Positions 34,081 through 50,873 of a DNA stretch of 64,000 bases are shown here, in pieces. The stretch is from Gemmatimonadales bacterium (GTDB taxonomy: Bacteria > Gemmatimonadota > Gemmatimonadetes > Gemmatimonadales > GWC2-71-9). A program made the translations under genes and the position numbers. The stretch spans positions 11,680 through 75,679 of the forward strand of contig JAICUF010000002.1 of NCBI GenBank assembly GCA_025935995.1, read 5' to 3'. Below the pieces are notes generated by a model. It was not told the origin of the DNA. It was given only the letters and a program-made list of their open reading frames with translations, and ran no database searches. Positions within the stretch are counted from its first letter, which is position 1; each line of letters begins with the position of its first letter.

Positions 34081-34261
34081 GATCGCAGATCAGGCAATTC
34101 AGCGTGGTGCCTAGGCGGCTCGAGCGTCCCGCCTCGGTCAGCACCCACGGTCGCACCTGCCACGGCGGGTCGTGGCGGACGTGCTGCCCGTGCCCGCACT
34201 CCAGCTCGGCCACCCAGTGGTGTTCGTCGTCCTGATGAAAACCGGTGATGCGGCGGTCCAT
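34064..34261 (-). CDS. DUF3565 domain protein (small Cys/His protein)
   Basis: 65 aa from the ATG at 34261: ...GFHQDDEHHWVAELECGHGQHVRHDPPWQVRPWVLTEAGRSSRLGTTLNCLIC... matches the DUF3565 pattern. Its 3' end overlaps the nuclease start by 17 nt. Confidence 0.7.
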   Translation of the reverse strand: MDRRITGFHQDDEHHWVAELECGHGQHVRHDPPWQVRPWVLTEAGRSSRLGTTLNCLICDRDPAS

Positions 34262-34280
34262 CGCTACCTTTGAGAGATCG

Positions 34281-34871
34281 ATGATTTCCGTGAGTCCGGC
34301 ACCCCGCTTCTTCGCCACGCCCGCCGCCTGGCGGCGCTGGCTCGCCGCGCGCCATGCGAAGGCGGCGGAGCTCTGGGTGGGTTTCCACAAGCGCGCCACC
34401 GGCCGGCCGAGCATGACGTGGCCGGAGGCGGTGGATCAGGCGCTGTGCTACGGGTGGATCGACGGAGTCCGGCGGCGGATCGACGACGAAAGATACGCGA
34501 TCCGCTTCACACCGCGCCGCGCCGGCAGCGTGTGGAGTGCGGTGAACCTGCGCCGGGTGACGGAGCTGACCGACGCGGGCCTGATGCAGCCGGCGGGACT
34601 CACGGCGCACGGCCGGGCCCGCGACTCGCGCTCGCGGATCTACTCCTACGAACAGCGCGACGCCGCCGAGTTTCCGGCCGCAATGGCCCGCCGGTTCCGG
34701 GCCAACAGGAAGGCGTGGAGCTTCTTCGAGTCCCAGCCCCCCTGGTACCGGCGGACGGCCACATGGCGGGTGGTGAGCGCCAGGAAGCCGGAAACCCGTG
34801 AGCGCCGGCTCGCCGCCCTCATCGCCGACTCCGCGGCCGGCCGGCGGATTCGCGAGCTGTCCCGCCCCTAG
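34281..34871 (+). CDS. YdeI/OmpD-associated family protein
   Basis: ...FATPAAWRRWLAARHAKAAELWVGFHKRATGRPSMTWPEAVDQALCYGWIDGVRRRIDDERYAIRFTPRR...SVWSAVN... is the canonical YdeI signature. Confidence 0.8.
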   Translation: MISVSPAPRFFATPAAWRRWLAARHAKAAELWVGFHKRATGRPSMTWPEAVDQALCYGWIDGVRRRIDDERYAIRFTPRRAGSVWSAVNLRRVTELTDAGLMQPAGLTAHGRARDSRSRIYSYEQRDAAEFPAAMARRFRANRKAWSFFESQPPWYRRTATWRVVSARKPETRERRLAALIADSAAGRRIRELSRP

Positions 34872-35091
34872 CGGCCAACCTCGGCCGTGCCGGGCGCAAC
34901 CTTCCGACGCGGCCCGGCATCCTGACACCATCCGGGCCTCCCGTGCGTCGGTACGAAGGGCCATTATTCCCGTACACCCCGCAAACGTCGCAATCGAGTC
35001 CACCCGGTGCCAACCCCCGGGAGGGATCCGGTGTCCAAGTGAGGACCGGCCGCCTGAAGGCGTCCGGCGGGCCCGCCTGAAAGGGAAGCTG

Positions 35092-36423
35092 ATGACACCC
35101 AGACAAGTTCGGCGGTCGGCCATCGCGGCCGGCGTCGTGTTCGCCGCGGTTCCTGCCGCCTGGCTCCTCGCGCGGAAGGCGCCCGGCGCCGCCGAATCCA
35201 GTCTCGTCGCCATCGTCAAGCGCGGCGACTTCCACGTCACCGTCACCACGTCGGGCGAGCTCCGGGCGCAGAAGTTCGTTCAGATCACCGGCCCCGCCAA
35301 CGCGCAGCAGGCGCAGATCTACCAGATGAAGATCGCGTCCATCGTCCCCGAGGGCACCACCGTCAAGGAAGGCGACGTGGTGGCGGAGCTCGACCGCTCG
35401 AGCGCCGCGACGAAGGTGGCGGAGGTGACGCTCGCGGTGCAGAAGGCGCAGGCCGTCTGGCAGCAGGCGATGCTCGACTCGACGCTCAACCTCTCGAAGG
35501 CGCGGGAGGAGATCCGCGGGATGGAGCTGGCCCTCGAGGAGAAGAAGCTGGCCAAGGACCAGACCAGGTACGAAGCCCCCACCATCCAGCGGCAGGCGGA
35601 GATCGACCTCGAGAAGGCGCAGCGCGCGCTCGCCCAGGGCAAGGTCGACTACAAGACGAAGACCGAGCAGGCGCGCGCCAAGATGCAGGAGGTGGGCGCC
35701 GACCTCGAGCGCCAGCAGAACATGCTGAAGGCCGTGCAGGACGTGATGAACGGCTTCACCATCAAGGCGCCGGCCGCCGGCATGGTGATCTACGTGAAGG
35801 AGTGGAACGGTCGCAAGCGCACTTCGGGCTCGCAGGTCTCGGCGTGGGATCCGTCGGTGGCGACGCTGCCGGACCTCACGGCGATGGAATCGGTGACCTA
35901 CGTGAACGAGATCGACGTCCGCAAGGTGGCGGTGGGCCAGCCGGTGACGATCACCCTCGACGCCGACCCGAGCAAGCACCTGACGGGGAAGGTGACCGCC
36001 GTCGCCAACATGGGCGAGCAGCGGCCCAACAGCGACGCCAAGGTGTTCGAGGTGAAGGTGGCCGTGGAGCATCCCGACACCACTCTCCGGCCGGGGATGA
36101 CGACCGGCAACATGATCGAGACCGGCCACGCCGAGAAGGTGCTCTCGGTGTCGCTCGAGGCACTGGGGGCCGATCACGGCACGCCGTTCGTCTACCGGCA
36201 GTCGGGCGGGTCGGTCACGCGCCAGGAGGTGGCGACGGGGCTGGTGAACGACGACGCCGTCGTGATCCTGCGCGGACTCAAGGAGGGTGATCATGTCCTC
36301 CTCACGCCGCCCAAGAACGGCGAGTCGCTGCCGCTCGTGCGGCTCCCGGGCGCGCCCGCCCCGCCGCCGGCCGCCGGCAGCGACACCGCGCGCAAGGTCA
36401 CGATCCCGACGCAGAAGTCATGA
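35092..36423 (+). CDS. HlyD/MacA-type periplasmic adaptor (membrane fusion protein)
   Basis: N-terminal TM anchor (AIAAGVVFAAVPAAWLLA), lipoyl half-motifs (...VKEGDVVAELD... / ...FTIKAPAAGMVIYV...) flanking a long coiled coil, then beta-barrel and MP domains. ATGA overlap with the permease gene. Confidence 0.85.
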   Translation: MTPRQVRRSAIAAGVVFAAVPAAWLLARKAPGAAESSLVAIVKRGDFHVTVTTSGELRAQKFVQITGPANAQQAQIYQMKIASIVPEGTTVKEGDVVAELDRSSAATKVAEVTLAVQKAQAVWQQAMLDSTLNLSKAREEIRGMELALEEKKLAKDQTRYEAPTIQRQAEIDLEKAQRALAQGKVDYKTKTEQARAKMQEVGADLERQQNMLKAVQDVMNGFTIKAPAAGMVIYVKEWNGRKRTSGSQVSAWDPSVATLPDLTAMESVTYVNEIDVRKVAVGQPVTITLDADPSKHLTGKVTAVANMGEQRPNSDAKVFEVKVAVEHPDTTLRPGMTTGNMIETGHAEKVLSVSLEALGADHGTPFVYRQSGGSVTRQEVATGLVNDDAVVILRGLKEGDHVLLTPPKNGESLPLVRLPGAPAPPPAAGSDTARKVTIPTQKS

Positions 36424-37805
36424 TCTCGCTGCGCCGCGCGCACCTCGCCTTCGGCGCGCGCACCGCGCTGGAGGCGGTGCGCCACAACCGCCTCCGCGCG
36501 GGACTCACATCGCTGGGGATTCTCTTCGGCGTGGCGTCGGTGATCGCGATGCTCGCGATCGGGAAGGGCGCCGAGCGGGAAATCCTGGAGCAGATGGTCC
36601 TGCTCGGCGCCAACAATGTGATCATCACGCCGCTGACGCAGCAGAGCGAGGAGCAGGTAAAGGACCCGACGGCAAACCAGGGTGAGAAGAAGGTCGAGCG
36701 CTTCTCGCCCGGGCTCACCTATCTGGATGCGCAGGCGCTGGCGCGCGACATCCCCGGCGTCCAGACGGCGGCCGCGGAGATCGTCCTCAACACGAACATG
36801 ACGCGTGAGGGACGGCGCCGCACCGGCAAGGTCGTCGGGGTGGACACTTCCTATTTCCGGCTCACCAACCTGGAGCTCGGCCGCGGGGACTGGTTCACCC
36901 GCGACCAGGTGGAGCGGGGCCTCCCGGTCGCGGTGATCGGCTACGGCGTCCGCACCCGCTTCTTCACCAGCGAGGACCCGATCGGCCGCCCCATCAAGGT
37001 GGGCGACAGCTGGCTCACCGTCGCCGGCGTCCTCACCGACCGCAGGGTGAGCGACGAGGCCGTCTCGAAGCTCGGCGTCCGCGACGCGAACATGGACGTG
37101 TACGTGCCGGCGCGCACCATGCTGCTCCGCTTCCGCGACCGGGCCCGCGTCACCCAGCGCGACGTGGAGCAGGCGGCGAGCAACGATGGCGGCGGCGGCG
37201 ACGACGACGCGCAGAAGACCGAGACGACGGAGCAGCACGACGAGCGGGTGAACCACAACCAGCTCGACCGGATCATCGTCCGCGTGGAGAACGCCGCGGA
37301 GGTGCCGGGCGTGACGGAGCTGATCCGGCGGACGCTGCTCCGGCGCCACAACGGCGTCGTGGACTTCGAGGTGAGCGTCCCCGAGCTGCTCCTCCGCCAG
37401 CAGCAGCGCACCAAGAACATCTTCAACGTCGTGCTCGGCGCCATCGCGTCGATCTCGCTCGTGGTGGGCGGGATCGGCATCATGAACATCATGCTCGCCT
37501 CGGTGCTCGAGCGCATCCGGGAGATCGGCGTGCGCCGCGCGGTCGGCGCCACGCAGCAGGAGATCCTGCTCCAGTTCCTGAGCGAGGCGGTGCTCATCAG
37601 TGTGGCGGGGGGCCTGGCCGGGATCATCCTGGGCGCCGCCATCAGCGCCGGGATCGAGCGCTTCGCCGGCATCACCACGATCGTCTCCTTTCTGTCCGTC
37701 GCCATCGCCTTCGGGGTGTCGTTCGCGGTGGGCGTGCTCTTCGGGATCGTGCCGGCCCAGCGCGCGGCGCGGCAGGATCCCGTCGTCTGTCTCCGGTACG
37801 AGTGA
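36420..37805 (+). CDS. MacB-type ABC transporter permease (MacB_PCD + FtsX), without ATPase domain
   Basis: ...LRAGLTSLGILFGVASVIAMLAIGKGAE... TM1, a large periplasmic domain, and a C-terminal FtsX 3-TM bundle ...EIGVRRAVGATQQEILLQFLSEAVLIS...PAQRAARQDPVVCLRYE. No Walker motifs anywhere in the ORF. Confidence 0.9.
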   Translation: MISLRRAHLAFGARTALEAVRHNRLRAGLTSLGILFGVASVIAMLAIGKGAEREILEQMVLLGANNVIITPLTQQSEEQVKDPTANQGEKKVERFSPGLTYLDAQALARDIPGVQTAAAEIVLNTNMTREGRRRTGKVVGVDTSYFRLTNLELGRGDWFTRDQVERGLPVAVIGYGVRTRFFTSEDPIGRPIKVGDSWLTVAGVLTDRRVSDEAVSKLGVRDANMDVYVPARTMLLRFRDRARVTQRDVEQAASNDGGGGDDDAQKTETTEQHDERVNHNQLDRIIVRVENAAEVPGVTELIRRTLLRRHNGVVDFEVSVPELLLRQQQRTKNIFNVVLGAIASISLVVGGIGIMNIMLASVLERIREIGVRRAVGATQQEILLQFLSEAVLISVAGGLAGIILGAAISAGIERFAGITTIVSFLSVAIAFGVSFAVGVLFGIVPAQRAARQDPVVCLRYE

Positions 37806-37809
37806 TTTC

Positions 37810-39264
37810 ATGACGCTTCGCCTCACGCTGGGCTCGGCTTTCGCGCTCGCGGCGGGAGTCCCGTTCGCCGGCCTCCGCGCCCAGGAGCCGCTCACCCTGG
37901 AGCGCGCGGTGCAGATGGCGCAGGACCAGGGCTATCAGGGGCGTGCCGCCGTCGCGGCGCGCGACGCCGCCCGGTTCCGCGACCGCTCGTTCTATGCCGC
38001 GTATCTCCCCCAGCTCTCGCTCGGCGGCACCCTGCCGCGGTACAACCGCGCCATCATCCCGGTGCTGCAGCCGGACGGCTCGACGCTCTTCCGCCCGCAG
38101 AACCAGACCGACGCCGGCCTCTCCGCCACGCTGAGCCAGCGGCTCCCGACCGGCGGCGACCTCTTCGTCTCGTCCTCGCTCACCACCTTCTCCATCAGCG
38201 GCGATCAGACGATCCGCACCTGGTCGTCCACGCCGGTGTCGCTCGGCATCCGCCAGAGTCTCTTCCGGCCCAACACCTTCTCCCTCGATCGCCGGGAGCG
38301 GCCGCTGGCGTCCGACCTCGCGGAGCGCCAGTTCCTCGCCTCGCGGGAGGAGCTGGCGGGCCAGACGACGGGACTCTTCTTCGACGTCTACTCGGCGGGC
38401 GTGCTGCTCAGGAACGCCACCGCCAACGCGGCGGTGAACGACACGCTCTACACCCTCAACAAGGGACGCTTCGAGGTCGGGAAGATCGGCGAGAACGACC
38501 TGCTGCAGAGCGAGCTGGCGCTCCTTCGTGCCCGCACGGCGGTGGACGCCGCGCGCCTCGAGTACACGCGTGCTCAGGCGGCGCTGCGGCTCGCGATCAG
38601 CCTGCCCGAGCCGGCGCCGCTCGATCTGGTGATTCCGGTGAACGTCCCCGACTACACCCCCGACAGCGCGCTGGCCGTCCGGCAGGCGGTCGAGAACGGC
38701 GTGAGCGCGTCCAGCGTGGCGCTCAACGCGGTGCAGGCCGACCGGCGCGTGACGGAGGCGAAGCTCAACAACGGCTTCAGCGCCACCGTGCAGGCCAGTG
38801 TGGGGTTCAACGCGACGGCGCCCGAGATGGGTCTCGCCTACCAGAATCTGCTGCAGGCGCGGCAGGCCACGGTCTCGGTCGAGCTGCCGCTCTTCACGTG
38901 GGGGACCGGAAGCAACGCGGTGAAGGCCGCCGAGTCCGATCGCGAGCAGACGGCAAACCTGGGGCGGTCGGCGCTGGAGCAGGCGGCGCAGGCGGCCCGC
39001 TTCGCGGCACTCCAGCTGCCGCTCGCGCGGCGGAACCTGCTGCTCTCCGCCAAGGCCGACACGGTGGCCGCCAAGCGGTTCGAGGTGGCCTACAACCGCT
39101 ACGTCATCGGCCGCATCGCGATCGACAATCTCTATCTGGCGCAGGCGGAGAAGGACGAGGCCAGCAACCAGTACGTCCAGGCCCTGCGCAACTACTGGGT
39201 CGCGCACTACCGGCTGCGCGCGCTGACCCTCTACGACTTCGAGGCCGCCAAGCCGCTCCGCTAG
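37810..39264 (+). CDS. TolC family outer-membrane efflux protein
   Basis: Starts 5 nt after the permease stop. Signal peptide, then LTLERAVQMAQDQGYQ... and two OEP repeats with long helical segments (...LEYTRAQAALRLAI...; ...ALRNYWVAHYRLRALT...). Confidence 0.85.
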   Translation: MTLRLTLGSAFALAAGVPFAGLRAQEPLTLERAVQMAQDQGYQGRAAVAARDAARFRDRSFYAAYLPQLSLGGTLPRYNRAIIPVLQPDGSTLFRPQNQTDAGLSATLSQRLPTGGDLFVSSSLTTFSISGDQTIRTWSSTPVSLGIRQSLFRPNTFSLDRRERPLASDLAERQFLASREELAGQTTGLFFDVYSAGVLLRNATANAAVNDTLYTLNKGRFEVGKIGENDLLQSELALLRARTAVDAARLEYTRAQAALRLAISLPEPAPLDLVIPVNVPDYTPDSALAVRQAVENGVSASSVALNAVQADRRVTEAKLNNGFSATVQASVGFNATAPEMGLAYQNLLQARQATVSVELPLFTWGTGSNAVKAAESDREQTANLGRSALEQAAQAARFAALQLPLARRNLLLSAKADTVAAKRFEVAYNRYVIGRIAIDNLYLAQAEKDEASNQYVQALRNYWVAHYRLRALTLYDFEAAKPLR

Positions 39265-41474
39265 CGGCCCGGATGGTAGGTGCGCTCGGTGTGGCCCGTC
39301 AGCTGCGACGGGTAGAAGTACACCTCGCGCAGATCGCCGCTCGCGTAGCGGGCCGCCTCGTCGTTGAAGTGCGGCGAAGCGGGATCGCCGCTCTCGCCGC
39401 CCGCCGTCACCGCCCGCGCCCGCACGCTGTCGCCGAACTCCACCACCGCCACGAAGCTGTTGCCGCTCGTCCCGTACCACTTCTTCGTGCCGGGATACGG
39501 TCGCGCGCCGAACGACGCAAGTGAGCCCCAGGTGGCCGACGTGAACGGCACGGGGATGCTCGGGCCGGCATCGCTGAACGGCTGCACGATGTCGCCGGTG
39601 AGGCGCTGGAAGCGGTTGATCTCGCCCCAGGCGGTACGCCAGGTGCCGAAGTCGGCGGTGAGCCGGGCGGAGGCGGAATCGAGCGCCGCGAGCAGGAGGT
39701 CCGCCGGCGCCCGCGCTCCCAGGTACTCCTCGACGGAGAGCCGGGCCCGCCGCGCGTCGGCAAAGGCCGCGCGCTGCGCCGCCGTGCCCCAGAAGACGCC
39801 GAGGGCGGTGGGCACCGATGAGGCCGACCAGCGACGGTCCCACGTCCGGAGCGCCGCGACCTGTTCGGCGAGCCGCGCCTTTCTCGCGTCGGTGGCCGGG
39901 AGACCGTCCCACGCGGCGAGGAGTGCCGGGAGCGGCTGCTCGAACCAGGTGAGATAGGTATCGTAGGCCGCCGCGCGGAGCGCCTCGAGCGTGAAGTCCT
40001 TCCGGCCCTCGAGCACGCGCACCGCGTGGCGGCCGCGCGCCGAGCCGGCGCCGGTCTCCACGTAGGCGGGGTAGTCGGCGCGCTTCGGGCTGCTCGGCCC
40101 GGCGGCCGACCACGGCCAGTCGTTGCTGTTGTAGAGCCAGCCGCTCGCGGGATTGTGGAGGCCGGGGGTCTCGTCGATCGAGAGCACGCCGTGCCAGTCG
40201 GTCGCGGGATTGCTGCCGTCCACCGGCCGGGTCCAGTCGAACGACGTGTCGCGGCGCGGGATGAAGTTGGCGTGGAAGTAGGCGATGGTGCCGTCGGCGT
40301 CGGCGTAGATGGTGTTGTTGGACGAGTTGGTGTGCAGCTCCATCGATCGGCGGAACTCGGCGTAGTTCCGGGCGCGCGTTCGGGTGTACGACTGGGTGAG
40401 GGCCTTCACCGGTGCCTGCATGAGCGCGATCGACACCCACTTGTCGCCGGTCGAGCGGATGACGGGCCCGTGCCGCGTGTAGAAGGCGGTGAAGGTGCGC
40501 CGCGCGACGCCGCTGTCGGTGCGCCAGGGCACGGTGATGCGCGTCGTGGTGACCGGGATCTCCCGTCCGCCGTAGCGATAGTAGTACCGCCCGTGCGTCC
40601 GCGTCACCGTCTCGAGGTATTCGTCGATCGCGTCGGCGCCGCTCGACGTGTGCATCCAGCCCACGCGCGGGTTGAACCCCTGATAGACGAAGAACTGTCC
40701 CCACGTCACCGCCCCGTAGGCGTCGAGCCCCGCATCGCTCGTCATCTGCAGCTCGGAGCGGAAGAAGAACGAGGTGTGGGGGTTGATGAGGAGGAGCGCG
40801 TGGTGCGACGTCGTGTTGGAGGGAGCGATGGCGATGCCGTTCGATCCGCGCGGCTCGCCGTCGCCGCCGTCGTAGGTCTCCGTCACTGTCGCCGGCCCCG
40901 TGCCGTAGAACTTCTGCAGCTCGGCCAGGCTCACGCGCTCGATGTCCCCGCCGATGCTGCCCTCGCTGAAGCTGAGCGCCATCCACGGCTCGAAGCGGCG
41001 GAGGACGCGGGGGTGCACGGCGGGATGCGTCGCGAGGTAGTAGTTGAGCCCGTCGGCCCACGCGGTCATGAGACTCTGGAGCCAGGCCGGGCTCCGGCGA
41101 TACAGCATCCGCATCGAATCGGGATCGATGAAGAGCTTCATCCGGAGGTCCTGCCAGACGGCCGACTCTCCCTCCGCCTCCGCCATGCGGCCGAGCGAGG
41201 TGAGATAGTTGGTCTCGACCCGGTTGAAGTCGTCCTCGGCCTGGGCGTAGATCATGCCGAAGACGGCGTCGGCATCGGTCTTTCCATGGACGTGGGCGAT
41301 GCCCCAGTCGTCGCGGACGATGGTGACGGCGCGCGCATGCCGCTCCCAGCGCGCCCGCTCGGCCGACCGGGCGGGAGCGGCGGCGCGGACTGGTGCGGGC
41401 GACTGGGGGACGGCGGCGAGGAGGAGGAGAATGGGGAGGAGTGTCATCCTTCCAGTATACCACGCGTATACCAC
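39261..41474 (-). CDS. penicillin acylase family (S45, Ntn hydrolase) protein, secreted
   Basis: ...IVRDDWGIAHVHGKTDADAVFGMIYAQAEDDFNRVE... (alpha subunit) and a ...GSNGIAIAPSNT... processing site exposing the nucleophilic Ser. An alternative start at 41447 (MTLLPILLLL...) is possible. Confidence 0.9.
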   Translation of the reverse strand: MVYAWYTGRMTLLPILLLLAAVPQSPAPVRAAAPARSAERARWERHARAVTIVRDDWGIAHVHGKTDADAVFGMIYAQAEDDFNRVETNYLTSLGRMAEAEGESAVWQDLRMKLFIDPDSMRMLYRRSPAWLQSLMTAWADGLNYYLATHPAVHPRVLRRFEPWMALSFSEGSIGGDIERVSLAELQKFYGTGPATVTETYDGGDGEPRGSNGIAIAPSNTTSHHALLLINPHTSFFFRSELQMTSDAGLDAYGAVTWGQFFVYQGFNPRVGWMHTSSGADAIDEYLETVTRTHGRYYYRYGGREIPVTTTRITVPWRTDSGVARRTFTAFYTRHGPVIRSTGDKWVSIALMQAPVKALTQSYTRTRARNYAEFRRSMELHTNSSNNTIYADADGTIAYFHANFIPRRDTSFDWTRPVDGSNPATDWHGVLSIDETPGLHNPASGWLYNSNDWPWSAAGPSSPKRADYPAYVETGAGSARGRHAVRVLEGRKDFTLEALRAAAYDTYLTWFEQPLPALLAAWDGLPATDARKARLAEQVAALRTWDRRWSASSVPTALGVFWGTAAQRAAFADARRARLSVEEYLGARAPADLLLAALDSASARLTADFGTWRTAWGEINRFQRLTGDIVQPFSDAGPSIPVPFTSATWGSLASFGARPYPGTKKWYGTSGNSFVAVVEFGDSVRARAVTAGGESGDPASPHFNDEAARYASGDLREVYFYPSQLTGHTERTYHPGR

Positions 41475-43586: not shown

Positions 43587-45638
43587 TCAGAGAAGCAGGT
43601 CGCTTCGCACCCGCTTCCGCACCGCCCACCAGAGCGCGCCGGCCAGATTGGATTTGCGGACCACGACCGACGCCTCGCCGCTCGCGCCCGGCCGCCAGGC
43701 GGCGCCGGCCGGCAGGTGCACGCGCGCCTCGACGTCCCCCGTCGCCGCGGTGCGCGACACGCTCGTGATCGCGCCGCGCACCGGATGCGCGACATCGGCG
43801 AGCGAGAGGAGCGTCACGCGCTGCCCCGGCGCCACCAGCGTCGAGCCGCTGCCGTTGAGCCGGATGCGCACTTCGGATGAATCCGGCTCCCCGATCGTCA
43901 GCACGGTCTGTCCCGCATCGACCCACTGGCCGCTGAGCCATTCGGGTCGCGCCGTGAGCACGACCCCCGCCTCCGGCGCCCGGAGCGCGAGCGCCGCGAT
44001 GCGCGCGCGCGCGGCGTCCAGGCCGGCCGCGGCCACCGCGCGCTCCCGCGCGAGCCGCTCCGCCTCGCCCGCGTCGCCGGCCGCGCGCGCACGGGCTTCG
44101 AGCATCGCGAGCGAATCGGCCGAGCGGCGCCCGGCGATCGCGGCGCGCTCGAGGGCAAAGTCGCGGAGCCGCACCAGCGGCGCGCCGGCGGGCACGCTCG
44201 TCCCTTCGCGCACCATGACGCTCGCCACGTAGGCGGAGTCGGGGGCGACGAGCGCCGTGGCGCGGGCAGGGGCGGCGGTGAAGGGGCCCGTCACGGTGAT
44301 GGACCACGGGATGAACAGGAGGGCGAGCAGCACCGCGAGCACCGCCGCGCCGACGCGGAAGCGGAGCGGCTTCGCGAGCAGCGCTTCCCGATGCTCCCGC
44401 ACCGAGCGCCCGATCGCGGCGGCCCAGGAGCGGATCTGGCCCCTCAGGAGAAGCAGAATCCCGCCCAGCGCCACGACGACGCCCGTGAACCCGAACACCC
44501 GACCGGCCCGGGTCACCACGAACGAGCCGACCAGCGTCAGCACCATGATCAGATAGGCGAACGATGCGATGCCGTAGAGCAGGAAGACCTTCCGTTCCCG
44601 CTCCGAGGCGGGCGGCATGGCAACCTCGAGCCGCAGCAGGTGGCGCTGCACCATCCAGCGCAGGTGATCGAAGGCCCGGTGCCGCATGTTGGGGATCTCG
44701 AGCCAGTCGCTGAGCGCGAAGTAGCCGTCGAGCGGCATCAGCGGGTTCGCGTTGGTGAGCGCCGAAACGACGCCACCCACGAGGAAGGTGAAGAGGGCGA
44801 GCTGCGACACCATCGTTCCCGGCTCCGCCAGCCACCACACGATCCCCGCGAGCGACGCGACGATCGCCTCGATCCACGAGCCCGCGGCGGTCACGGCGAG
44901 CCGCGCGCGCAGCTCGGGAAAGGTCCAGGCGTCGTTCACGTTGGCGAAGAAGGCGGGCTGGAAGTAGAGCAGCATGAAGCCCATCTCGTGCACCTCGCCC
45001 CCGTAGTGCTTGCAGGTGATCCCGTGTCCCAGCTCATGGATCAGGATGATGACCATGAGGGTGAGCCAGAGGAGCACGGCGAGCCCCGGGGTGTACGAGC
45101 CCAGGTGCGTGAGCTGCGCAAAGCCGGTGTGGAGCTTGTCCCAGTTCGTCGCCATGAGGACGAGATTGACGGCGAAGAGGGCGAGCGAGAAGATCACGAA
45201 CCCGCGCGTGTAGAAGAAGCCGAGGCGCGGGATCCAGCGGTTGAAGAGCGCGTCGGGATCGCCCATGGACCACCGCATCCGCAGCAGCTCACCCTTGAAG
45301 AGGCGGGGCCGCGCGCGCCGCTTCCGCTCGGCGCGGAGCCGCTCGAGCTGGAGGACGCTCCGCTCGCCGACCGACCGCTCCATCAGTCCCATGCGGTTGA
45401 GCTTCTGCGCGAATCCCTCGACCGCCGCCTCCGAGACCCCGATCCCCGCCTCGCGCAGCGCCTCCGCCGCCTCGCCGCAGGTCCGGGTGCCGTCGAGCGC
45501 GCGCATGACGGTGATCTCGACCGAGCGGAAGCGGAAGTATTTCTGGCTCGCGAGATCCTTGACGACGTAGCTCAGCTCGCCGCGGTAGGTCTGCTCCACG
45601 ATGGCGACGTCGGGGCGGAGCCGCGGCGTGCGGGTCAT
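43587..45638 (-). CDS. three-part fusion: N-terminal PqqD/RRE-like domain + M50 (site-2 protease) membrane metalloprotease + C-terminal HlyD-type adaptor domain
   Basis: 683 aa. HELGH is at aa 201-205 (nt 45024-45038) inside a TM helix, and the second S2P motif NANPLMPLDG lies downstream. aa ~440-683 carry lipoyl halves (...VMVREGTSVPAGAPLVRL... / ...LRAPEAGVVLT...), a coiled coil and a beta-barrel. aa ~30-88 (...ITVMRALDGTRTCGEAAEALREAGIGVSEAAVEGFAQKLNRMGLME) follow the PqqD-family pattern. Confidence 0.9.
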   Translation of the reverse strand: MTRTPRLRPDVAIVEQTYRGELSYVVKDLASQKYFRFRSVEITVMRALDGTRTCGEAAEALREAGIGVSEAAVEGFAQKLNRMGLMERSVGERSVLQLERLRAERKRRARPRLFKGELLRMRWSMGDPDALFNRWIPRLGFFYTRGFVIFSLALFAVNLVLMATNWDKLHTGFAQLTHLGSYTPGLAVLLWLTLMVIILIHELGHGITCKHYGGEVHEMGFMLLYFQPAFFANVNDAWTFPELRARLAVTAAGSWIEAIVASLAGIVWWLAEPGTMVSQLALFTFLVGGVVSALTNANPLMPLDGYFALSDWLEIPNMRHRAFDHLRWMVQRHLLRLEVAMPPASERERKVFLLYGIASFAYLIMVLTLVGSFVVTRAGRVFGFTGVVVALGGILLLLRGQIRSWAAAIGRSVREHREALLAKPLRFRVGAAVLAVLLALLFIPWSITVTGPFTAAPARATALVAPDSAYVASVMVREGTSVPAGAPLVRLRDFALERAAIAGRRSADSLAMLEARARAAGDAGEAERLARERAVAAAGLDAARARIAALALRAPEAGVVLTARPEWLSGQWVDAGQTVLTIGEPDSSEVRIRLNGSGSTLVAPGQRVTLLSLADVAHPVRGAITSVSRTAATGDVEARVHLPAGAAWRPGASGEASVVVRKSNLAGALWWAVRKRVRSDLLL

Positions 45639-46618
45639 CGCGCGGCGCGCACCACCGTCTCGCCGGGCGTGAGGCCGCTCGCCACCTCGACCCGGCCCCC
45701 GCTCAGATCGCCGCCGAGGGTGACCGCGCGGAGCGTGGTGCGGTCATTGGCCCAGACGAGCACGTATCCATCGGGGGAGAGCGCGGAGCGCGGCATCGCC
45801 ACGACCCAGCGGCGCTGGGCTCCGAGGCGGACCGTGACGCTGGCACCGGGGACGAGATGGGCGCCGCTGTCGAGCTGCACGACCGCCTCCTGGGTGCCGC
45901 TCGCGGCGTCGATGGCCGGCGAGACCCGCACGATGCGGCCGGCCGCGGCCGCGCCCCGGAGACCCAGCACGCGCGCCGGAGCGCCGGGCCGGATGCCGTC
46001 GGCGGAATTCTCGGGCACCCGCACCGAGACGAGGAGCGGCGACGCGGCGGTGACGCGGAAGAGCGAATCACCCACGCGGACCAGGCGGCGCGCGCGGGCC
46101 ATGCGCGCGGTGACCACGCCGGCGAAGGGCGCCACCACCCGGGTGAGGTCGGCGTCGCGCCGCGCCTGACGCAGCTGGATCTCCGCGCGCCGAAGCTCCG
46201 ACTCAACCTGCTCCAGCTCCGCCGCGGTGGACCCGCCGGCGGCCGCCAGCGCGCGCTGCCGGACCGCGACCCGGCGGGCGTTGTCGGCCTCTTCGGTGGC
46301 GCGGGCCAGCGCGATCTGCTGATCGGTGCTCTCGAGACTCGCGAGCAGCTGGCCCGCCGCCACGCGGCTTCCGAGATCGGCGTGGACCGCCTCGACCAGT
46401 CCCGGGGCCCGCGCGATCACGACCGCATCATTCTCGACGTAGAGCTGGCCGGGCAGCGAGAGGGGCGCGTCCACCAGCTCGCTGTCCACCGTCGCGAGAG
46501 TCGCCGGCGGGGTCGCCGCGCGGCGCGCGGGCGGCGTGGCGGTTTCGGCGCGGGGATCGCCTCCGCAGGCCGCGGCGCCCAGCGCCAGGATGAGTCCGAC
46601 CGCATGGCGACTCGTCAT
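45635..46618 (-). CDS. HlyD-type periplasmic adaptor lipoprotein
   Basis: Start at MTSRHAVGLILALGAAACGG (lipobox). ATGA overlaps with both neighbours (46615-46618, 45635-45638). ...VEAVHADLGSRVAAGQLLASL...coiled coil...VVAPFAGVVTA...beta-barrel. Confidence 0.85.
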   Translation of the reverse strand: MTSRHAVGLILALGAAACGGDPRAETATPPARRAATPPATLATVDSELVDAPLSLPGQLYVENDAVVIARAPGLVEAVHADLGSRVAAGQLLASLESTDQQIALARATEEADNARRVAVRQRALAAAGGSTAAELEQVESELRRAEIQLRQARRDADLTRVVAPFAGVVTARMARARRLVRVGDSLFRVTAASPLLVSVRVPENSADGIRPGAPARVLGLRGAAAAGRIVRVSPAIDAASGTQEAVVQLDSGAHLVPGASVTVRLGAQRRWVVAMPRSALSPDGYVLVWANDRTTLRAVTLGGDLSGGRVEVASGLTPGETVVRAAR

Positions 46619-48042
46619 GACCAGATCCTCCACCAGAGAAGCCGCGCCCAGCGGGCCGGCGCCCGCACCATCCGCGTCGCGACGGATGCCGGCGCCGTCA
46701 GCACCCGCGCATACGCGGCCATCCCCGGGCGCAGCAGGCCGTCGGGATTGGCCACCAGCGCGCGGACCGGGAAGCGCACATGGTCGGCCGAGTCGGCGGG
46801 CAGGGGACCGAGCGAGATGACGCGGCCGCTGAAGGTGCGCTGCGGCAGCGCGTCGACCCGGAGCCGCACCTCGTTGCCCACCGACACTCGGCCGATCTCG
46901 CGCTGGTCGATCCCGAACTCGAGCTCCAGGCTGTCGGTGCGGCCCACGGTCAGGATGAGATCACCCGCGTCGAGCCAGCTGCCGGTACGCTCCTCGGGCC
47001 GCGGCGTGAGCACCACGCCCGAGGACGGCGCTCGCACCGTCGCGGCCGCGATCTCCTCGTCGAGCAGCGCCACCTCCTGGCGCAGCGATTCGCCGCGCAC
47101 CCGCTGGCTCCGTTCTTCGGCAGCGTCGCCCCGGCTCGCGGCCAGGGCGGCGGCGCGGTCGCTGGCGGCCACCGCGGCGGCGGCCGCAATGCGGGCACTG
47201 CGGGTCTCGATGTCGCGGAGCTGCACCAGCGGCGTCCCCCGCGCGACCGCCGTCCCCTCCCGCACCAGCACCCGCTCGACCACGCCGGGCACCAGCGCCC
47301 GCACCTGCACCATGCTGGCCGGCCGGAAGACCGGGCTGCTCCCGCTCACGCGGAGCGGCCAGCGGATGAGCGTGAGCGCGGCGAGCGCCACCACCGCGAG
47401 CGCGGCATAGGCCTGCCGCTGGCGGCGAGGGAGCTCCATGAAGGCGCGCTTCTTCGCGGCGAGCGCGCCCAGGGTGTCGATGAGCGGGACCTGCGCGTAG
47501 AGCTGCGCGTTCCGGAGCGCCACCGCCGTCTGGTTGGCGAGGATCGCGGCGACCTCGCGCTGGCGCTGCGTCGCGAATTCCGGCTCCCCTGATTCGAAGA
47601 GCAGGATGCCGAGGGTGCCCTCCTCGTCCCGGAGCGGCAGGTAGAGACCGCTCCTGACCCCGTCGGCCTCCAGGTCCTGACCGAAGATCTGCACCAGCTG
47701 GCGCTCGGCGTCGGAGGCGGGGTCGGCGCGGTCGACGAGGTAGAACGACTCACCGTGGCCCGCGACCCAGGCGGCGCGCGCGGCCAGGTCGAGGACGCGC
47801 GGGTCCTTCGCATTCACCGTATCCTGACCCGCCATAGCGCGGATGTCGCAGACGCCCTTGTCGTAGAGCGCCACGGCGGCGCGGTCGAAGGTGAGGGCCT
47901 GCGCGGAGAGATTGACGACGGAGCGGAGTACCCGGTCGAGGTCGAGGCTCGCCGTGATCTCGCGGCTGATCTCGAGCAGGAGGGTAAGGTCGGCGGCGGC
48001 CGGGGTGCCGGCGCCGGAGGGCGGACTGGTTGTGGCGGTCAC
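46615..48042 (-). CDS. GAF domain - TM helix - HlyD-type adaptor fusion protein
   Basis: 475 aa, GTG start. aa ~18-185 form a GAF domain (...LLLEISREITASLDLDRVLRSVVNLSAQAL...LYLPLRDEEGTLGILLFES...ILANQTAVALRNAQLY). TM helix AYAALAVVALAALTLI. Then lipoyl halves, coiled coil and beta-barrel (...VLVREGTAVARGTPLVQL.../...VRAPSSGVVLT...). Confidence 0.85.
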   Translation of the reverse strand: MTATTSPPSGAGTPAAADLTLLLEISREITASLDLDRVLRSVVNLSAQALTFDRAAVALYDKGVCDIRAMAGQDTVNAKDPRVLDLAARAAWVAGHGESFYLVDRADPASDAERQLVQIFGQDLEADGVRSGLYLPLRDEEGTLGILLFESGEPEFATQRQREVAAILANQTAVALRNAQLYAQVPLIDTLGALAAKKRAFMELPRRQRQAYAALAVVALAALTLIRWPLRVSGSSPVFRPASMVQVRALVPGVVERVLVREGTAVARGTPLVQLRDIETRSARIAAAAAVAASDRAAALAASRGDAAEERSQRVRGESLRQEVALLDEEIAAATVRAPSSGVVLTPRPEERTGSWLDAGDLILTVGRTDSLELEFGIDQREIGRVSVGNEVRLRVDALPQRTFSGRVISLGPLPADSADHVRFPVRALVANPDGLLRPGMAAYARVLTAPASVATRMVRAPARWARLLWWRIWS

Positions 48043-48057
48043 GGACAGGATATACAG

Positions 48058-48091
48058 AAAAAAAGCGGGCGCCGGAAGACCCGGCGCCCGC
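48058..48091 (-). terminator. rho-independent terminator/attenuator between the mini-ORFs and the GAF-HlyD gene
   Basis: Read on the minus strand: GCGGGCGCCGG-GTCTT-CCGGCGCCCGC (perfect 11-bp GC stem at 48065-48075/48081-48091, 5-nt loop) followed by TTTTTTT (48058-48064). It lies 20 nt after the mini-ORF-2 stop and 16 nt before the GTG at 48042. Confidence 0.75.
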
Positions 48092-48110
48092 TTTCGCGTT
48101 CAGCCGATCC

Positions 48111-48263
48111 TCAGGAGGGGACGACCGTCCGCGGGGCGATCCGCTGCTCCAGCTCTTCCACGCTCAGCTCGATGGCTTCGGCGGACTTGCCGGTCGCGGT
48201 CCGGATCTGATTCTTCTGCTCGTCGGTCAGGTTGATCCTGAGGTGCTTCTTCTCGTCGGCCAT
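48111..48263 (-). CDS. mini-ORF 2: 50-aa peptide MADEKKHLRINLTDEQKNQIRTATGKSAEAIELSVEELEQRIAPRTVVPS (candidate precursor peptide)
   Basis: Translated by hand; it is below the cut-off of the supplied ORF track. ATG at 48263 is preceded by GGGAGAG, and the stop is TGA at 48111-48113. Paralogous to mini-ORF 1, and followed by the terminator. Confidence 0.65.
   Translation of the reverse strand: MADEKKHLRINLTDEQKNQIRTATGKSAEAIELSVEELEQRIAPRTVVPS
48126..48172 (-). repeat. 47-bp direct repeat copy B (inside mini-ORF 2)
   Basis: Identical to 48320-48366 at 46 of 47 positions (the single difference is a synonymous CTG/CTC). Encodes (I/V)ELSVEELEQRIAPRT. Confidence 0.9.
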
Positions 48264-48310: not shown

Positions 48311-48451
48311 CTAGAGCATCGTCCGCGGGGCGATCCGCTGCTCGAGCTCTTCCACGCTCAGCTCGACCGAATCAACCGCCTTGCCCATCGCCTTCTCGAG
48401 CTCGGCCTTCTGGTCGGGGGTCAGTTCGATCTTGATGTTCTGGTCAGCCAT
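48311..48451 (-). CDS. mini-ORF 1: 46-aa peptide MADQNIKIELTPDQKAELEKAMGKAVDSVELSVEELEQRIAPRTML (candidate precursor peptide)
   Basis: Translated by hand. ATG at 48451 is preceded by AAGGAGA (6-nt spacer), and the stop is TAG at 48311-48313. It shares MAD..., the I.LT..QK...GK pattern and the identical 15-aa block ELSVEELEQRIAPRT with mini-ORF 2. Confidence 0.7.
   Translation of the reverse strand: MADQNIKIELTPDQKAELEKAMGKAVDSVELSVEELEQRIAPRTML
48320..48366 (-). repeat. 47-bp direct repeat copy A (inside mini-ORF 1)
   Basis: See copy B. The flanking N-terminal coding sequence and the last 2-4 codons have diverged, whereas this block is conserved at the nucleotide level. Confidence 0.9.
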
Positions 48452-48511: not shown

Positions 48512-48521
48512 CGGCGCCGGC

Positions 48522-48539
48522 GTGAAAAATTCGTGAAAT
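48522..48539. promoter_or_regulatory. repeat box A: GTGAAAAATTC-GTGAAAT (two GTGAAA heptamer-type repeats, 11-bp spacing)
   Basis: GTGAAA begins at 48522 and 48533. On the minus strand the pair sits where a -35 element would be for the TAGACT hexamer. AT-rich island in GC-rich DNA. Confidence 0.5.
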
Positions 48540-48582: not shown

Positions 48583-48608
48583 ACGGCGACCCGGCGCCAC
48601 CCCCGAAC

Positions 48609-48626
48609 GTGAAAAACTCGTGAAAA
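48609..48626. promoter_or_regulatory. repeat box B: GTGAAAAACTC-GTGAAAAG (two GTGAAA repeats, 11-bp spacing)
   Basis: GTGAAA begins at 48609 and 48620. 16 of 18 nt are identical to box A. It ends 6 nt before the TTG (48633) that opens the regulator ORF and is followed by GATATT. Confidence 0.5.
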
Positions 48627-48632
48627 GGGATA

Positions 48633-50873
48633 TTGCGGTCCCCAGCCGAGGCGGTATGTTGGCCAATCACCCGAAAATCGGCTGGAGGTCCCACGAGCCC
48701 CTTTGCGCTGCGGCTGCTCGGTTCGCCAAGCGTCTCCACCGGAGACGAGGGGACGACTGCGCACCTGGGCGCCAAGGAGCTGTCGCTCCTGGCCTACCTC
48801 GCGCTCGAGCCCGGCCCGCATCCCCGGGAGGAGCTGGCCGCACTCCTCTGGGGCGAATCGTCGGACGCCGACGCCCGGGCCTCGCTCCGCCAGGCGCTCA
48901 AGCATCTGCGGGACGCGCTGGGTGATGCGCTCGTGGTCGAGCGGGGCAGCGCGATGCTCGGCCCGGGCATCTCCTCCGACGTCGCCGACTTCCGCCGGGC
49001 CGCCGCCGGAAGTCCCGCCGACGCCATTCGCTTCGACATTCCCCACGCGCTGGCCGGGCTCTCGGTCCGGCACGCTCCCGTCTTCGACGAGTGGCTGGAG
49101 CGGACGCGGGCCGAGCTTCGCCGGGAATATGAGGAGGCGCTCGCGACGGTGGGGCGCGAGGCACTGGGACGGCACGCGTGGCGGGAGGCGTTGCAGGTGG
49201 CCGACCGCTGGCTGGCCGCCGACCCGCTGGCCGAGGCGGCGATCCGGCTGGCCGTGGAGGCGAGCTATCTCTCGGGCGATCGCCGGGCCGCGCTCGCCCG
49301 CTTCGCGGACTACCGCCGCCTGCTCGAGCGCGAGGGTGGCGTCGCGCCGGGCCATGCGCTCCTCTCGCTGGTGCGGCGGGTCGAGTCCGACGGCACCCTC
49401 GATGCGCCGAATCCTTCCGCCGACGACTGGTACGCCCGCCCGCCCGCGCTGCAGGCCGCGCTGATCGAGCGCGACACCGAATGGCGCGCGCTGAGCGGCG
49501 CCTGGCGAACCCTCGGCCCGTCGAGTGGCGCCATCGTCCTCATGGAAGGCGAGGCCGGCGCCGGGAAGACGCGGCTCGCCGAGGAGTTCCTGCGGTGGGT
49601 GGTGGCGGAGGGAGGTGCCGTCCTGCGGGGCCGCGGCTACGGCGGCCGCGCCGGCGTGTCCTACGGCACGATGGTCGAGGTGCTGGGCGAGTCGCTCGAT
49701 CAGGCGGGCGTGGGCGGCACCGCGCCCGACTGGCTCTCGGAGGTGGCGCGGCTCGTGCCGGAGATCCGCCAGCGATTCCCGGGGCTGCCCGCGCCGTCGC
49801 CCGGCAGCGATCCGATGCACGGGAGCCGACTCTACGAAGGCGTCGCCCAGATGCTGCTCGCCATCTCGGCCGAGCGGCCGGTGGTGGTGGCGGTGGACGA
49901 TCTGCAGTGGTGCGACGAGGACTCGTGCAGTCTCCTCCTCTTCCTGGCCCGCCGGCTCGAGCGCGCACCCATCCTCTGGCTCGGTCTCCTGACGCTGGGG
50001 GAGCTCGAGCGCGATGCGCCGGCGGCGCGACTCTGCCGCGTGTGGCGCACCCGGCCGCACGCCGGCGCCATCACGCTCGCGCCGCTCAGCGCCGACGGCG
50101 TGCTGGCCCTCGTGTCGGAGATGGGGCGGCTCCGGGAGGGCGGCGAGGCGCGGCGGTTCGCGGCACGCCTGCACGAGGTGACGCGCGGCAATCCCTTCTA
50201 TCTCCAGGAGCTGCTCAAGACGCTCTTCGCGCAGGAGGTGCTGCGCGACTCGCCGGAGGGATGGGTGCTGCCGGAGCCGCAGTCTCCCGGCGTGCTCGAC
50301 GTCTCGATGCCGCGGTCGGTGCAGGACGCGATCGCCGAGCGGGTGGAGCGGCTGCCGGAGCCGGCGCACGCGATGCTGGTGACGGTGGCGGTGGCGGAGA
50401 CGGGCTGCGACACCGAGGTGCTGTCGCACATGCACGGCATCTCGCGCCTGCATGCCGCCGCGCTGGGCGACGCGCTCGTGGGACGGCGCCTGCTGGTGGA
50501 GGAGGAGAACGCGTACCGCTGCGCGCACCCCGTGATCGGCCGCGTGGTGCGCGACGGGCTCTCCCCCTCGAGGCGGCGCGAGGTGCACCGGAGTCTCGCG
50601 CTCACCCTCCAGGGTCTCGCGCGCGACTCGGGCGATCCGACGCTCGCGGGGGTGATCGCGCTGCACGCCGACCGCGGCGGCGAGCGGGGACTCGCGTACC
50701 AGGCCGCGCTCTCGGCGAGTCAGATCGCGGCGGAGCGCTTCACGCAGGAGGAGGCGCTGAGCTGGCTCGATCAGGCGGCCACCTACGCGCGCACGCCCGA
50801 GGAGGCCGCGGAGGTGAATCGCCTTACGGCGCTGCTGGTGGACGGGACGGCGCCGCTGCTCGAGACCCGCTGA
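48633..50873 (+). CDS. SARP-type transcriptional activator (OmpR-like wHTH + BTAD) fused to a P-loop AAA/NB-ARC-like ATPase and C-terminal helical repeats
   Basis: ...FALRLLGSPSV...LGAKELSLLAYLALEPGPHPREELAALLWGES...ASLRQALKHLRDALG... (wHTH). ...FDEWLERTRAELRREYEEAL...ALARFADYRRLLEREGGVAPG... (BTAD). Walker A GEAGAGKT and ...VVVAVDDLQWCD... (Walker B). The start is uncertain: the TTG at 48633 is the first start-type codon in frame. Confidence 0.85.
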   Translation: MRSPAEAVCWPITRKSAGGPTSPFALRLLGSPSVSTGDEGTTAHLGAKELSLLAYLALEPGPHPREELAALLWGESSDADARASLRQALKHLRDALGDALVVERGSAMLGPGISSDVADFRRAAAGSPADAIRFDIPHALAGLSVRHAPVFDEWLERTRAELRREYEEALATVGREALGRHAWREALQVADRWLAADPLAEAAIRLAVEASYLSGDRRAALARFADYRRLLEREGGVAPGHALLSLVRRVESDGTLDAPNPSADDWYARPPALQAALIERDTEWRALSGAWRTLGPSSGAIVLMEGEAGAGKTRLAEEFLRWVVAEGGAVLRGRGYGGRAGVSYGTMVEVLGESLDQAGVGGTAPDWLSEVARLVPEIRQRFPGLPAPSPGSDPMHGSRLYEGVAQMLLAISAERPVVVAVDDLQWCDEDSCSLLLFLARRLERAPILWLGLLTLGELERDAPAARLCRVWRTRPHAGAITLAPLSADGVLALVSEMGRLREGGEARRFAARLHEVTRGNPFYLQELLKTLFAQEVLRDSPEGWVLPEPQSPGVLDVSMPRSVQDAIAERVERLPEPAHAMLVTVAVAETGCDTEVLSHMHGISRLHAAALGDALVGRRLLVEEENAYRCAHPVIGRVVRDGLSPSRRREVHRSLALTLQGLARDSGDPTLAGVIALHADRGGERGLAYQAALSASQIAAERFTQEEALSWLDQAATYARTPEEAAEVNRLTALLVDGTAPLLETR

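Follow-up and report, generated by a model that had tools for sequence, protein, structure and literature searches.

The stretch analysed here, 64,000 nucleotides of contig JAICUF010000002.1 from a Gemmatimonadales bacterium (hereafter the window), encodes on its minus strand (46615..48042) a protein of 475 amino acids in which a GAF domain is fused through a single transmembrane (TM) helix to an adaptor of the HlyD type (GAF-HlyD). The gene belongs to an operon with the order precursor peptide A, precursor peptide B, hairpin, GAF-HlyD, a lipoprotein HlyD adaptor, and an adaptor fused to an RRE-like domain and a site-2 protease (S2P-HlyD). The open reading frame (ORF) of GAF-HlyD has a GC content at third codon positions (GC3) of 0.93 and a codon usage typical for the real genes of this window of 70% GC.

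The protein was annotated from its ORF, Pfam matches, AlphaFold2 models and Foldseek searches. A preliminary description of the locus had read the N-terminal region as a GAF domain, and the domain search agrees: GAF_2, GAF and GAF_3 (PF13185, PF01590 and PF13492) match residues 33-178 with E values of 2e-9 to 5e-9, and their scores (38.3, 37.2 and 37.1 bits) all exceed the respective gathering cut-offs (28.6, 22.4 and 27 bits). A model of the GAF domain alone reached a pTM of 0.78, and Foldseek matched it to solved GAF structures with E values of 1.5e-10 to 3e-8 and target-normalised TM-scores of up to 0.72. In the full-length AlphaFold2 model (67 sequences, mean pLDDT 85) the GAF domain spans residues 14-183 (47494..48003, minus strand) and corresponds to the membrane-proximal GAF of relatives that carry two or three such domains. 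Model and sequence place a basic juxtamembrane helix (residues 186-202) and the TM helix (residues 206-225; 47368..47427, minus strand) behind it. The adaptor module (residues 231-450; 46693..47352, minus strand) consists of a lipoyl domain, an alpha-hairpin (residues 278-334, formed by helices 278-304 and 307-334) and a beta-barrel. HlyD_3 (71.7 bits) and HlyD_D23 (70.4 bits) match residues 244-443 with an E value of 1e-19, and the best structural matches of residues 231-450 are MacA, EmrA, MexA and AcrA (E values down to 4e-16). Pfam, the model and Foldseek thus agree on a lipoyl (barrel-sandwich) domain, an alpha-hairpin and a beta-barrel, as in the HlyD/membrane fusion protein (MFP) superfamily, and the proposed architecture, a GAF domain joined through one TM helix to a MacA/MexA-like adaptor, is real. 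GAF-HlyD scores 83.9 bits against the RND_mfp model TIGR01730 (cut-off 94.9; profile positions 21-246 of 322) and 59.1 bits against the type I secretion HlyD model TIGR01843 (cut-off 208.65), and reaches neither cut-off.

GAF-HlyD does not start with a signal sequence, and its basic residues number six before the TM helix and three after it. We therefore place the GAF domain in the cytoplasm, where the preliminary description had also put it, and by the same prediction the adaptor is periplasmic. The chain ends in a Trp-rich amphipathic helix (residues 454-474, ...RWARLLWWRIWS; 46621..46683, minus strand), which in the model occupies the position of the membrane-proximal domain of classical adaptors. 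A conserved basic helix of this kind closes the chain of GAF-HlyD (RWARLLWWRIWS) as well as that of S2P-HlyD (..ALWWAVRKRVRSDLLL); it may serve as a membrane-interface anchor or as a contact between GAF-HlyD and S2P-HlyD.

The two partner genes lie on the same strand. The lipoprotein-type adaptor (45635..46618, likely ATG at 46618) is a clear RND_mfp member (TIGR01730, 151.7 bits against the cut-off of 94.9), and its ATG overlaps the TGA stop codon of GAF-HlyD (ATGA). Its own TGA overlaps the ATG of S2P-HlyD at 45638 in the same manner, and the three genes are, judged from these overlaps, translationally coupled with GAF-HlyD first. S2P-HlyD (43587..45638, minus strand, 683 amino acids) combines an RRE-like N-terminus, an M50/S2P intramembrane metalloprotease and a C-terminal HlyD domain, as assigned by Pfam, NF041824 and sequence motifs. 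Residues 5-405 match positions 1-372 of the 379 positions of NF041824 (daptide_HExxH) with 209 bits, below the equivalog cut-off of 300 bits, and the protein is a homologue but not an equivalog of the daptide peptidase; it also matches the YydH/LiaK model NF058609. The catalytic motifs HELGH and NPLMPLDGY are kept, and HExxH and NPLxxxDGY are invariant. In daptide biosynthesis an RRE is likewise fused N-terminally to a site-2 protease, and the leader motif is ELExMEAP with proline at position -1 (bioRxiv 10.1101/2023.03.08.531785).

Precursor peptides and the region upstream of GAF-HlyD

Precursor peptide A (48311..48451, minus strand, 46 amino acids) consists of a leader (...IELTPDQK...ELSVEELEQRIAP) and the tail RTML; precursor peptide B (48111..48263, minus strand, 50 amino acids) has the same leader followed by the tail RTVVPS. 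The two share ...I.LT.(D/E)QK......(M/T)GK.....(V/I)ELSVEELEQRIAP and then diverge. The leader is conserved, acidic and about 42 residues long, and it ends in ELE(E/Q)RIAP, a motif of the daptide type that the two peptides of the window share with 122 unique relatives. Peptide genes with the motif L(E/D/Q)xR(I/V/L)AP were present in 72 of 87 loci, with one to three copies each. The tails are hypervariable (120 unique tails among 122 unique precursors), cationic and 3-16 residues long (median 8); they are rich in K, P, G and R, contain no Cys and less than 2% D plus E, and end in many different C-terminal residues. A search with a peptide profile retrieved at least 3426 clusters, mostly from soil metagenomes and none of them informatively named. 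Pfam and NCBIfam hold no model for these precursors, and the window peptides match no Pfam family at E <= 0.01. The JGI annotation labels many precursors as 'uncharacterized small protein (DUF1192 family)'. None of the listed matches of the peptide profile carries a precomputed Pfam domain, and the label looks spurious; our guess is that the stretch LSVEELEERIA gave rise to it.

Longer precursors occur in two triad loci outside the Gemmatimonadales (a triad being the set of the three adaptor-domain genes). In L096 (9354-9734, minus strand) and L097 (9326-9691 and 9823-10143, both minus strand) the N-terminal leader of the other precursors (MKEVTIKLTDEQRKQVKDATGK..) recurs and is followed by six to eight tandem units, and an R-A-N-P motif stands before each short segment (e.g., LALGAEETA). 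From their repeat pattern these peptides look like multi-core precursors, each holding many copies of a short peptide. The xRxxP repeats before each unit mirror the ERIAP-plus-tail arrangement of the other precursors and thereby lend support to a putative cleavage after xxP and to short linear products. A regular-expression search recovered no ELEERIAP-type peptides in L085, L086 and L088, and looser searches gave repeat-type candidates. At an Acidobacteriota triad locus (L089) a small ORF (11554-11838, minus strand) encodes a leader plus (KKGLG)x10. Two paralogues with (A[VI]RP)n were found in L088, likewise an Acidobacteriota triad locus (13114-13404 and 12528-12911, both minus strand); their status as genes is uncertain, as both strands are open in the GC-rich repeat.

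An intrinsic-terminator-like hairpin (48061..48095, minus strand) with a 16-bp stem, 11 GC pairs and a following T-run separates the peptide genes from GAF-HlyD, whose GTG start lies about 10 nt past the T-run. The preliminary description had called GAF-HlyD the first gene after a terminator; this holds for the hairpin, and a sigma-70-like promoter was looked for and not found. When a terminator was defined strictly, as a hairpin with four or more T, 10 of 42 distinct loci had one; this rule was replaced by a test of hairpin energy against coding controls. By this test a strong hairpin, below the 5th percentile of the controls, follows the last peptide gene in 33 of the 42 loci (median energy -32 kcal/mol versus -21 for the controls; Mann-Whitney p = 4e-14), but a good T-run follows in only 13. 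The hairpin is likely an attenuator or a 3'-end stabiliser between peptide and machinery genes.

Upstream of the peptide genes and divergent from them lies a gene for a SARP-type regulator (48633..50873, plus strand; Trans_reg_C, BTAD and AAA_16 in Pfam), the true start of which may be downstream of 48633. The direct repeat TTTCACG-N4-TTTCACG occurs without mismatch between regulator and peptide A in a distal copy (48608..48625, minus strand) and a proximal copy (48521..48538, minus strand), the latter 70 nt upstream of the ATG of peptide A. These are the only two matches in the 64 kb, where none is expected by chance, and exact copies stand upstream of the peptide genes in eight related loci. 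The repeats are in 11-nt register and look like SARP boxes.

Conservation of the fusion and of its gene neighbourhood

A search of 5.8 billion proteins yielded at least 1294 homologues among the candidates scored. Each of the 120 homologues listed has GAF as well as adaptor families in Pfam, and Gemmatimonadales metagenomes are the source of most. Among genomes sampled once per species, a relative is encoded in 163 matched stretches; 80 loci were kept, and every one matches residues ~16-475 in one frame. The orthologues are thus never two separate genes, and the concern raised with the first description, that the fusion might stem from a mis-assembled or frameshifted junction, falls away. The window itself is 96% identical to a Gemmatimonadales metagenome-assembled genome (MAG). 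A HMMER pass over 1.84 billion cluster representatives gave 154 matches below 1e-30, including full-length relatives at 25-40% identity, and GAF and HlyD were both present in the 30 distant representatives scanned. These distant members belong to the Acidobacteriota (Pyrinomonadaceae, Blastocatellia and Terriglobales) and Planctomycetota. The GAF-HlyD fusion therefore recurs, always as one ORF and in more than 1000 protein clusters, in Gemmatimonadota, Acidobacteriota and Planctomycetota. A copy of the module with 85% identity was also found in a MAG labelled 'Bacillota bacterium' (L006, JBLMWC010000110.1); the probable cause is mis-binning or a mistaken label, and not true presence in a monoderm.

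Most relatives are longer than the window protein, with about 645 amino acids and two GAF domains or about 800 and three. The single-GAF form was found only in the window and in two other assemblies (L005 and L004/L084), whose 475-residue proteins are 97% and 84% identical to that of the window. In the single-GAF loci the last peptide gene is separated from the LLLEISREI motif by ~130 nt, versus ~700 nt elsewhere, and in the closest two-GAF relatives the distal GAF is already degenerate. The window protein is thus a derived, shortened member of a family with two to three GAFs, and the best explanation is that the distal GAFs of the relatives are dispensable or accessory and were deleted in the window lineage. 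The membrane-proximal GAF, which is retained, is the most conserved and most constrained region of the protein. Within the Gemmatimonadales its identity is 76% (adaptor 67%, distal GAF 55%), and between phyla 39% (adaptor 30%, distal GAF 22%). The ratio of nonsynonymous to synonymous substitution rates (dN/dS) was 0.085 and 0.02 for the GAF versus 0.154 and 0.065 for the HlyD adaptor, with overall values of 0.04-0.15. Identity and dN/dS both show that the GAF is functionally constrained.

The gene set of the triad is stable, too. The lipoprotein adaptor follows GAF-HlyD on the same strand in 82 of 84 loci and S2P-HlyD follows in 66 of 67, the one exception having S2P-HlyD nearby on the other strand. 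A SARP homologue lies divergently upstream in 58 of the 62 loci whose upstream sequence is long enough. The four exceptions (L086-L089, at least two of them from Acidobacteriota) are among five distant loci (L085-L089). Distant loci keep the triad with other regulators (a Ser/Thr kinase, sigma-54 two-component systems, a Crp-type protein). From phylum to phylum the regulator changes (SARP, sigma-54, Ser/Thr kinase), but the GAF is kept. Flanking genes also vary between loci; in the window the neighbours are DUF4397, SDR and penicillin amidase genes.

We also scanned metagenome contigs with an S2P-HlyD profile headed by a Planctomycetota member and classified the resulting 80 diverse loci (26-41% identity) with home-built hidden Markov models of GAF, HlyD and S2P. 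A GAF-HlyD gene adjoins S2P-HlyD in 42 of them, 12 have the middle adaptor on a contig that ends before the GAF position, 18 were left unclassified, and eight are stand-alone loci without partner adaptors. A middle adaptor with room for another gene but no GAF was seen in none of the 80. In the three-adaptor form the first adaptor is thus always GAF-bearing (42 of 42 loci with enough sequence). The stand-alone loci (L134, L139, L151 and L159; also L137, L149, L164 and L168) encode a distinct class of S2P-HlyD of ~780 amino acids with two HlyD-profile stretches. For at least 3.6 kb around it there is neither a GAF-HlyD nor a lipoprotein adaptor, and hence the protease-adaptor fusion can exist alone. 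Some triads are adjoined by extra RRE/M50-type protease paralogues without HlyD (L086 14107-15165, minus strand; L096 12595-13791, plus strand; L118 808-1854, plus strand).

The best fold matches of the GAF domain are phytochrome and cyanobacteriochrome GAFs and the GAFs of a sigma-54 regulator, PtsP and an HD-GYP protein, all with at most 24% identity. Bilin binding, suggested by the phytochrome GAFs at the top of the fold search, was ruled out: the chromophore Cys-His motif is absent, as in the alignment to 2lb5, 2k2n and 8w26 (..DPCHVHYL.. versus ..VQIFGQDL.. in the query) it stands opposite Ile-Phe, and the only Cys (C65) is not kept across phyla. None of the cyclic nucleotide-binding GAFs of phosphodiesterases or CyaB was among the 50 best structural matches, the sequence match to CyaB2 (1ykd) is weak (E 0.039), and at the F-x3-DE position of the NKFDE signature GAF-HlyD reads F-ATQ-RQRE. 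No recognisable ligand motif was thus found in the structural matches or the bilin-site alignment. The residues invariant across phyla (L22, E28, I29, L33, G72, L137, D139, G142, G145, A175, R177, N178, A179, Y182 and P186) sit in alpha1, alpha2, the beta4-beta5 hairpin and the end of alpha5, and in the AlphaFold2 model alpha5 continues into the juxtamembrane helix. A structural or transmission role fits this pattern as well as sensing does. It would also fit a conserved role in dimerisation and transmission, with any ligand being lineage-specific. The nearest relatives of this GAF outside adaptors are giant proteins of 1300-3950 amino acids with 6-15 tandem GAFs and 26-30% identity (e.g., P0189, P0203 and P0249).

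Function of the triad and alternative readings

The conserved operon makes it likely that GAF-HlyD is a component of a triad for the processing and export of leader peptides. As the best overall explanation, to which we give nearly an even chance, the triad would mature and export short leader-derived peptides, with GAF-HlyD as its cytoplasm-reaching subunit and the GAF as its control module. That the GAF works as an inside-out control module, a proposal made by analogy with known systems, is in itself quite possible, although we would not go as far as calling it an even bet. The ligand-gated assembly or opening of the adaptor and the sensing of the precursor put forward in the preliminary description are hypotheses of this kind. 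The SARP regulator would switch on the peptide promoter via the TTTCACG repeats, and the hairpin would pass only a fraction of the transcripts into the machinery genes, which would yield an excess of precursor. The RRE-like domain of S2P-HlyD would bind the leader, and the intramembrane protease would cut after ...AP, as the daptide peptidase does after ELExMEAP. The three HlyD modules may then build a mixed periplasmic tube that exports the short peptide, its alpha-hairpins docking to an outer-membrane channel encoded elsewhere. The GAF, probably as a dimer, would be joined rigidly to the TM helix via its last helix and the 20-residue juxtamembrane helix, and its state, set by a cytoplasmic ligand or by the engaged precursor, would decide whether the adaptor assembly is competent. 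A wider version of this explanation is speculative and on the unlikely side, namely that the triad represents a hitherto overlooked, ATPase-free route for making and secreting very short linear cationic peptides in diderm soil phyla (Gemmatimonadota, Acidobacteriota and Planctomycetota), with the protease as inner-membrane entry, the three adaptors as periplasmic conduit and the invariant membrane-proximal GAF as gate on the cytoplasmic side. The hypervariable products of 3-16 residues, which some precursors hold in several copies, would then be strain-specific signals and thus peptide pheromones of Gram-negative-type bacteria.

Several observations weigh against export of matured peptides under GAF control. 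In the loci examined the module contains no gene for an inner-membrane pump (ABC, RND or MFS) or an ATPase, nor, in any of them, one for an outer-membrane factor, and it thus does not have the pump and outer-membrane partners of tripartite efflux or secretion systems. The window does encode an OEP protein (37600-39264), but in a separate MacB-type operon whose neighbourhood is not conserved beside the triad. The fusion proteins do not reach the curated cut-offs of NF041824, TIGR01730 and TIGR01843, and the RRE assignment is sub-threshold in Pfam (PqqD-like, residues 24-85, E 0.061). The invariant residues of the GAF are not clustered in the segment that usually lines the pocket, and in principle the tails might not be products but spacers free of constraint.

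Among the alternatives, the best placed, though doubtful, is that the GAF is a substrate receptor: it would dock the leader by its conserved N-terminal half (..RIxLTPEQKxQVRxATGK..) and pass the precursor on to the RRE-S2P protein, as an enlarged counterpart of the cytoplasmic N-terminus with which HlyD senses its substrate in type I secretion. The leader of ~42 residues is far longer than ELExxxAP, the sole conserved leader motif reported in the daptide paper (bioRxiv 10.1101/2023.03.08.531785). Along with the triad, its N-terminal half is shared between phyla, also by loci that have another sequence in place of ELEERIAP (L087, L089, L096 and L097), and besides the RRE the GAF is the only constant cytoplasmic domain of the triad. 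The putative pocket-lining segments, identified by analogy with solved GAFs, are conserved within lineages, as is the leader. However, the eight stand-alone S2P-HlyD loci have no GAF protein, and therefore recognition and cleavage need no GAF in general. RRE domains usually bind a beta-strand, and binding of a strand such as RIELT could explain the leader's N-terminal half.

Rather improbable is a GAF that senses nothing and acts as a ligand-free structural module, di- or oligomerising to fix the stoichiometry and register of a mixed adaptor ring. Most of the invariant residues belong to alpha1, alpha2 and alpha5, which build the dimer interface in tandem GAFs, and to the beta4-beta5 hairpin, and such a scaffold would agree with the lack of a recognisable ligand motif and with a GAF number that varies from one to three without loss of the system. 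It also has a precedent in PelD, a GAF without a known ligand role of its own in a secretion complex (PMC8892547). Yet the lowest dN/dS and the highest conservation span the whole domain and not the helices only, and the GAF is kept in 42 of 42 triads although simpler coiled coils could dimerise.

It is very improbable that GAF-HlyD serves ordinary efflux of drugs or metals, as the adaptor of a pump whose gene lies elsewhere, and that the peptides and the protease are unrelated neighbours. Source labels such as 'RND family efflux transporter MFP subunit' and 'multidrug resistance efflux pump' point that way, as do the several MacB-type permeases of the window and its ABC/HlyD/FtsX/OEP operon (34245-39264). 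But ATGA overlaps couple the adaptor to the S2P-HlyD gene, essentially every locus has it together with S2P-HlyD and the peptide genes although the flanks change, the vicinity holds no conserved pump gene, and its scores stay below the RND_mfp and type_I_hlyD cut-offs. Finally, an assembly or frameshift artefact, or a pseudogene decaying after loss of the N-terminal GAF, might be suspected in a protein 130-330 residues shorter than most relatives and can be dismissed almost entirely, as the same 475-residue form stands in two independent assemblies, the ORF is intact with its high GC3 and low overall dN/dS, and all of the family has the fusion; these relatives, the ORF and dN/dS rule out that it arose by frameshift or mis-assembly.

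For the control module, the closest known counterpart is Alg44 of the alginate secretion system of Pseudomonas, a PilZ-TM-MexA/HlyD-like protein that belongs to an envelope-spanning secretion machine and activates it inside-out (PMC8892547). Alg44 and GAF-HlyD share a cytoplasmic sensor domain, a single TM helix and a periplasmic MFP-like domain. The preliminary description had held that MFPs normally have only a short cytoplasmic stub; Alg44 already departs from this, and a cytoplasmic sensor domain is therefore not in itself new among MFP-like proteins (PMC8892547). Unlike in GAF-HlyD, the cargo of Alg44 is a polysaccharide made by a synthase, and there is no protease, no peptide precursor and no second or third adaptor; Alg44's PilZ domain, a binder of c-di-GMP, has no Pfam match in GAF-HlyD. 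HlyD and CvaA resemble GAF-HlyD in their N-in topology, single TM helix and periplasmic lipoyl/hairpin/barrel adaptor, which the Pfam HlyD models match. The cytoplasmic N-terminus of HlyD and CvaA serves in substrate sensing and in recruitment of the outer-membrane channel. In HlyD, however, it is a stub of ~60 residues without a folded domain, and HlyD works with an ABC transporter, which the module lacks. MacA, EmrA, MexA and AcrA, the best structural matches, have an alpha-hairpin of comparable type but no cytoplasmic domain, and they work with an ABC, MFS or RND pump.

The third gene of the triad resembles daptide MpaP and the YydH/LiaK-type metalloproteases, as its NF041824 and NF058609 matches indicate, and the system is daptide-like in its ELE(E/Q)RIAP leader, which recalls ELExMEAP, and in having several precursor genes per locus. 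It differs from the daptide systems in lacking an invariant C-terminal Thr, the modifying enzymes MpaB/C/D/M and an ABC exporter; at its C-terminus the protease has a HlyD domain that the daptide peptidase does not have, and the cores are cationic and 3-16 residues long, whereas daptide cores are long and hydrophobic. The proposed coupling of leader-guided cleavage to the export of small peptides has an analogue in the peptidase-containing ABC transporters (PCATs) that work with HlyD-type adaptors on double-glycine peptides. In PCATs the protease is a C39 cysteine peptidase, in contrast to the intramembrane zinc S2P of the triad, which has no ATPase and comprises three different adaptor-domain proteins, one with a GAF. 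The role proposed for the GAF would likewise resemble that of LapD, in which a cytoplasmic nucleotide-sensing module controls, through one membrane protein, a periplasmic output in a type I secretion context, although LapD has degenerate GGDEF/EAL domains with a HAMP domain and its periplasmic output sequesters a protease. Cleavage-coupled export by PCATs and inside-out signalling by LapD are both established.

We found no paper on GAF-HlyD, on the S2P-HlyD fusion or on this peptide family in the full-text literature, a scope outside which many subscription papers fall. The architecture is visible in databases because pipelines label the proteins 'GAF domain-containing protein/multidrug resistance efflux pump', and we rate the system as known kinds, a sensor-bearing MFP and an RRE-S2P leader peptidase, in an undescribed combination. 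The usual view of periplasmic adaptors is one of passive connectors that have no more than a short stub in the cytoplasm. The adaptor described here includes a folded domain of the sensor type, invariant and strongly constrained, and works in a machine without a recognisable pump; inside-out control of a complex for export across the envelope can thus be studied in a concrete case that is also widespread. At the same time a very large unnamed family of small peptides is tied to a defined machine for their processing. Should the short tails be secreted signals, communication by peptides would become accessible in soil phyla that are abundant and little studied; should they not be, the fixed fusion of S2P and adaptor would still, as read from the sequences, join leader removal to export in a novel manner.

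Elsewhere in the window, the MacB-type export operon (34245-39264, plus strand) comprises a small ORF (34245-34871), a HlyD adaptor (34798-36423), a MacB_PCD/FtsX permease (36420-37805) and the OEP (TolC-like) gene (37600-39264). It is a possible source of the outer-membrane channel; a link to this MacB/HlyD/FtsX/OEP operon as a conserved feature of the module was ruled out, as the flanks differ between loci. Fused double permeases of ~900-1030 amino acids with duplicated MacB_PCD and FtsX are encoded at 3079-6177, 11714-14395 (plus strand) and 22670-25378 (minus strand). A protein of the penicillin-amidase (Ntn-hydrolase) family, which includes acyl-homoserine-lactone acylases, is encoded 2 kb from the module (39261-41474, minus strand) and shows no link to the triad in other loci.

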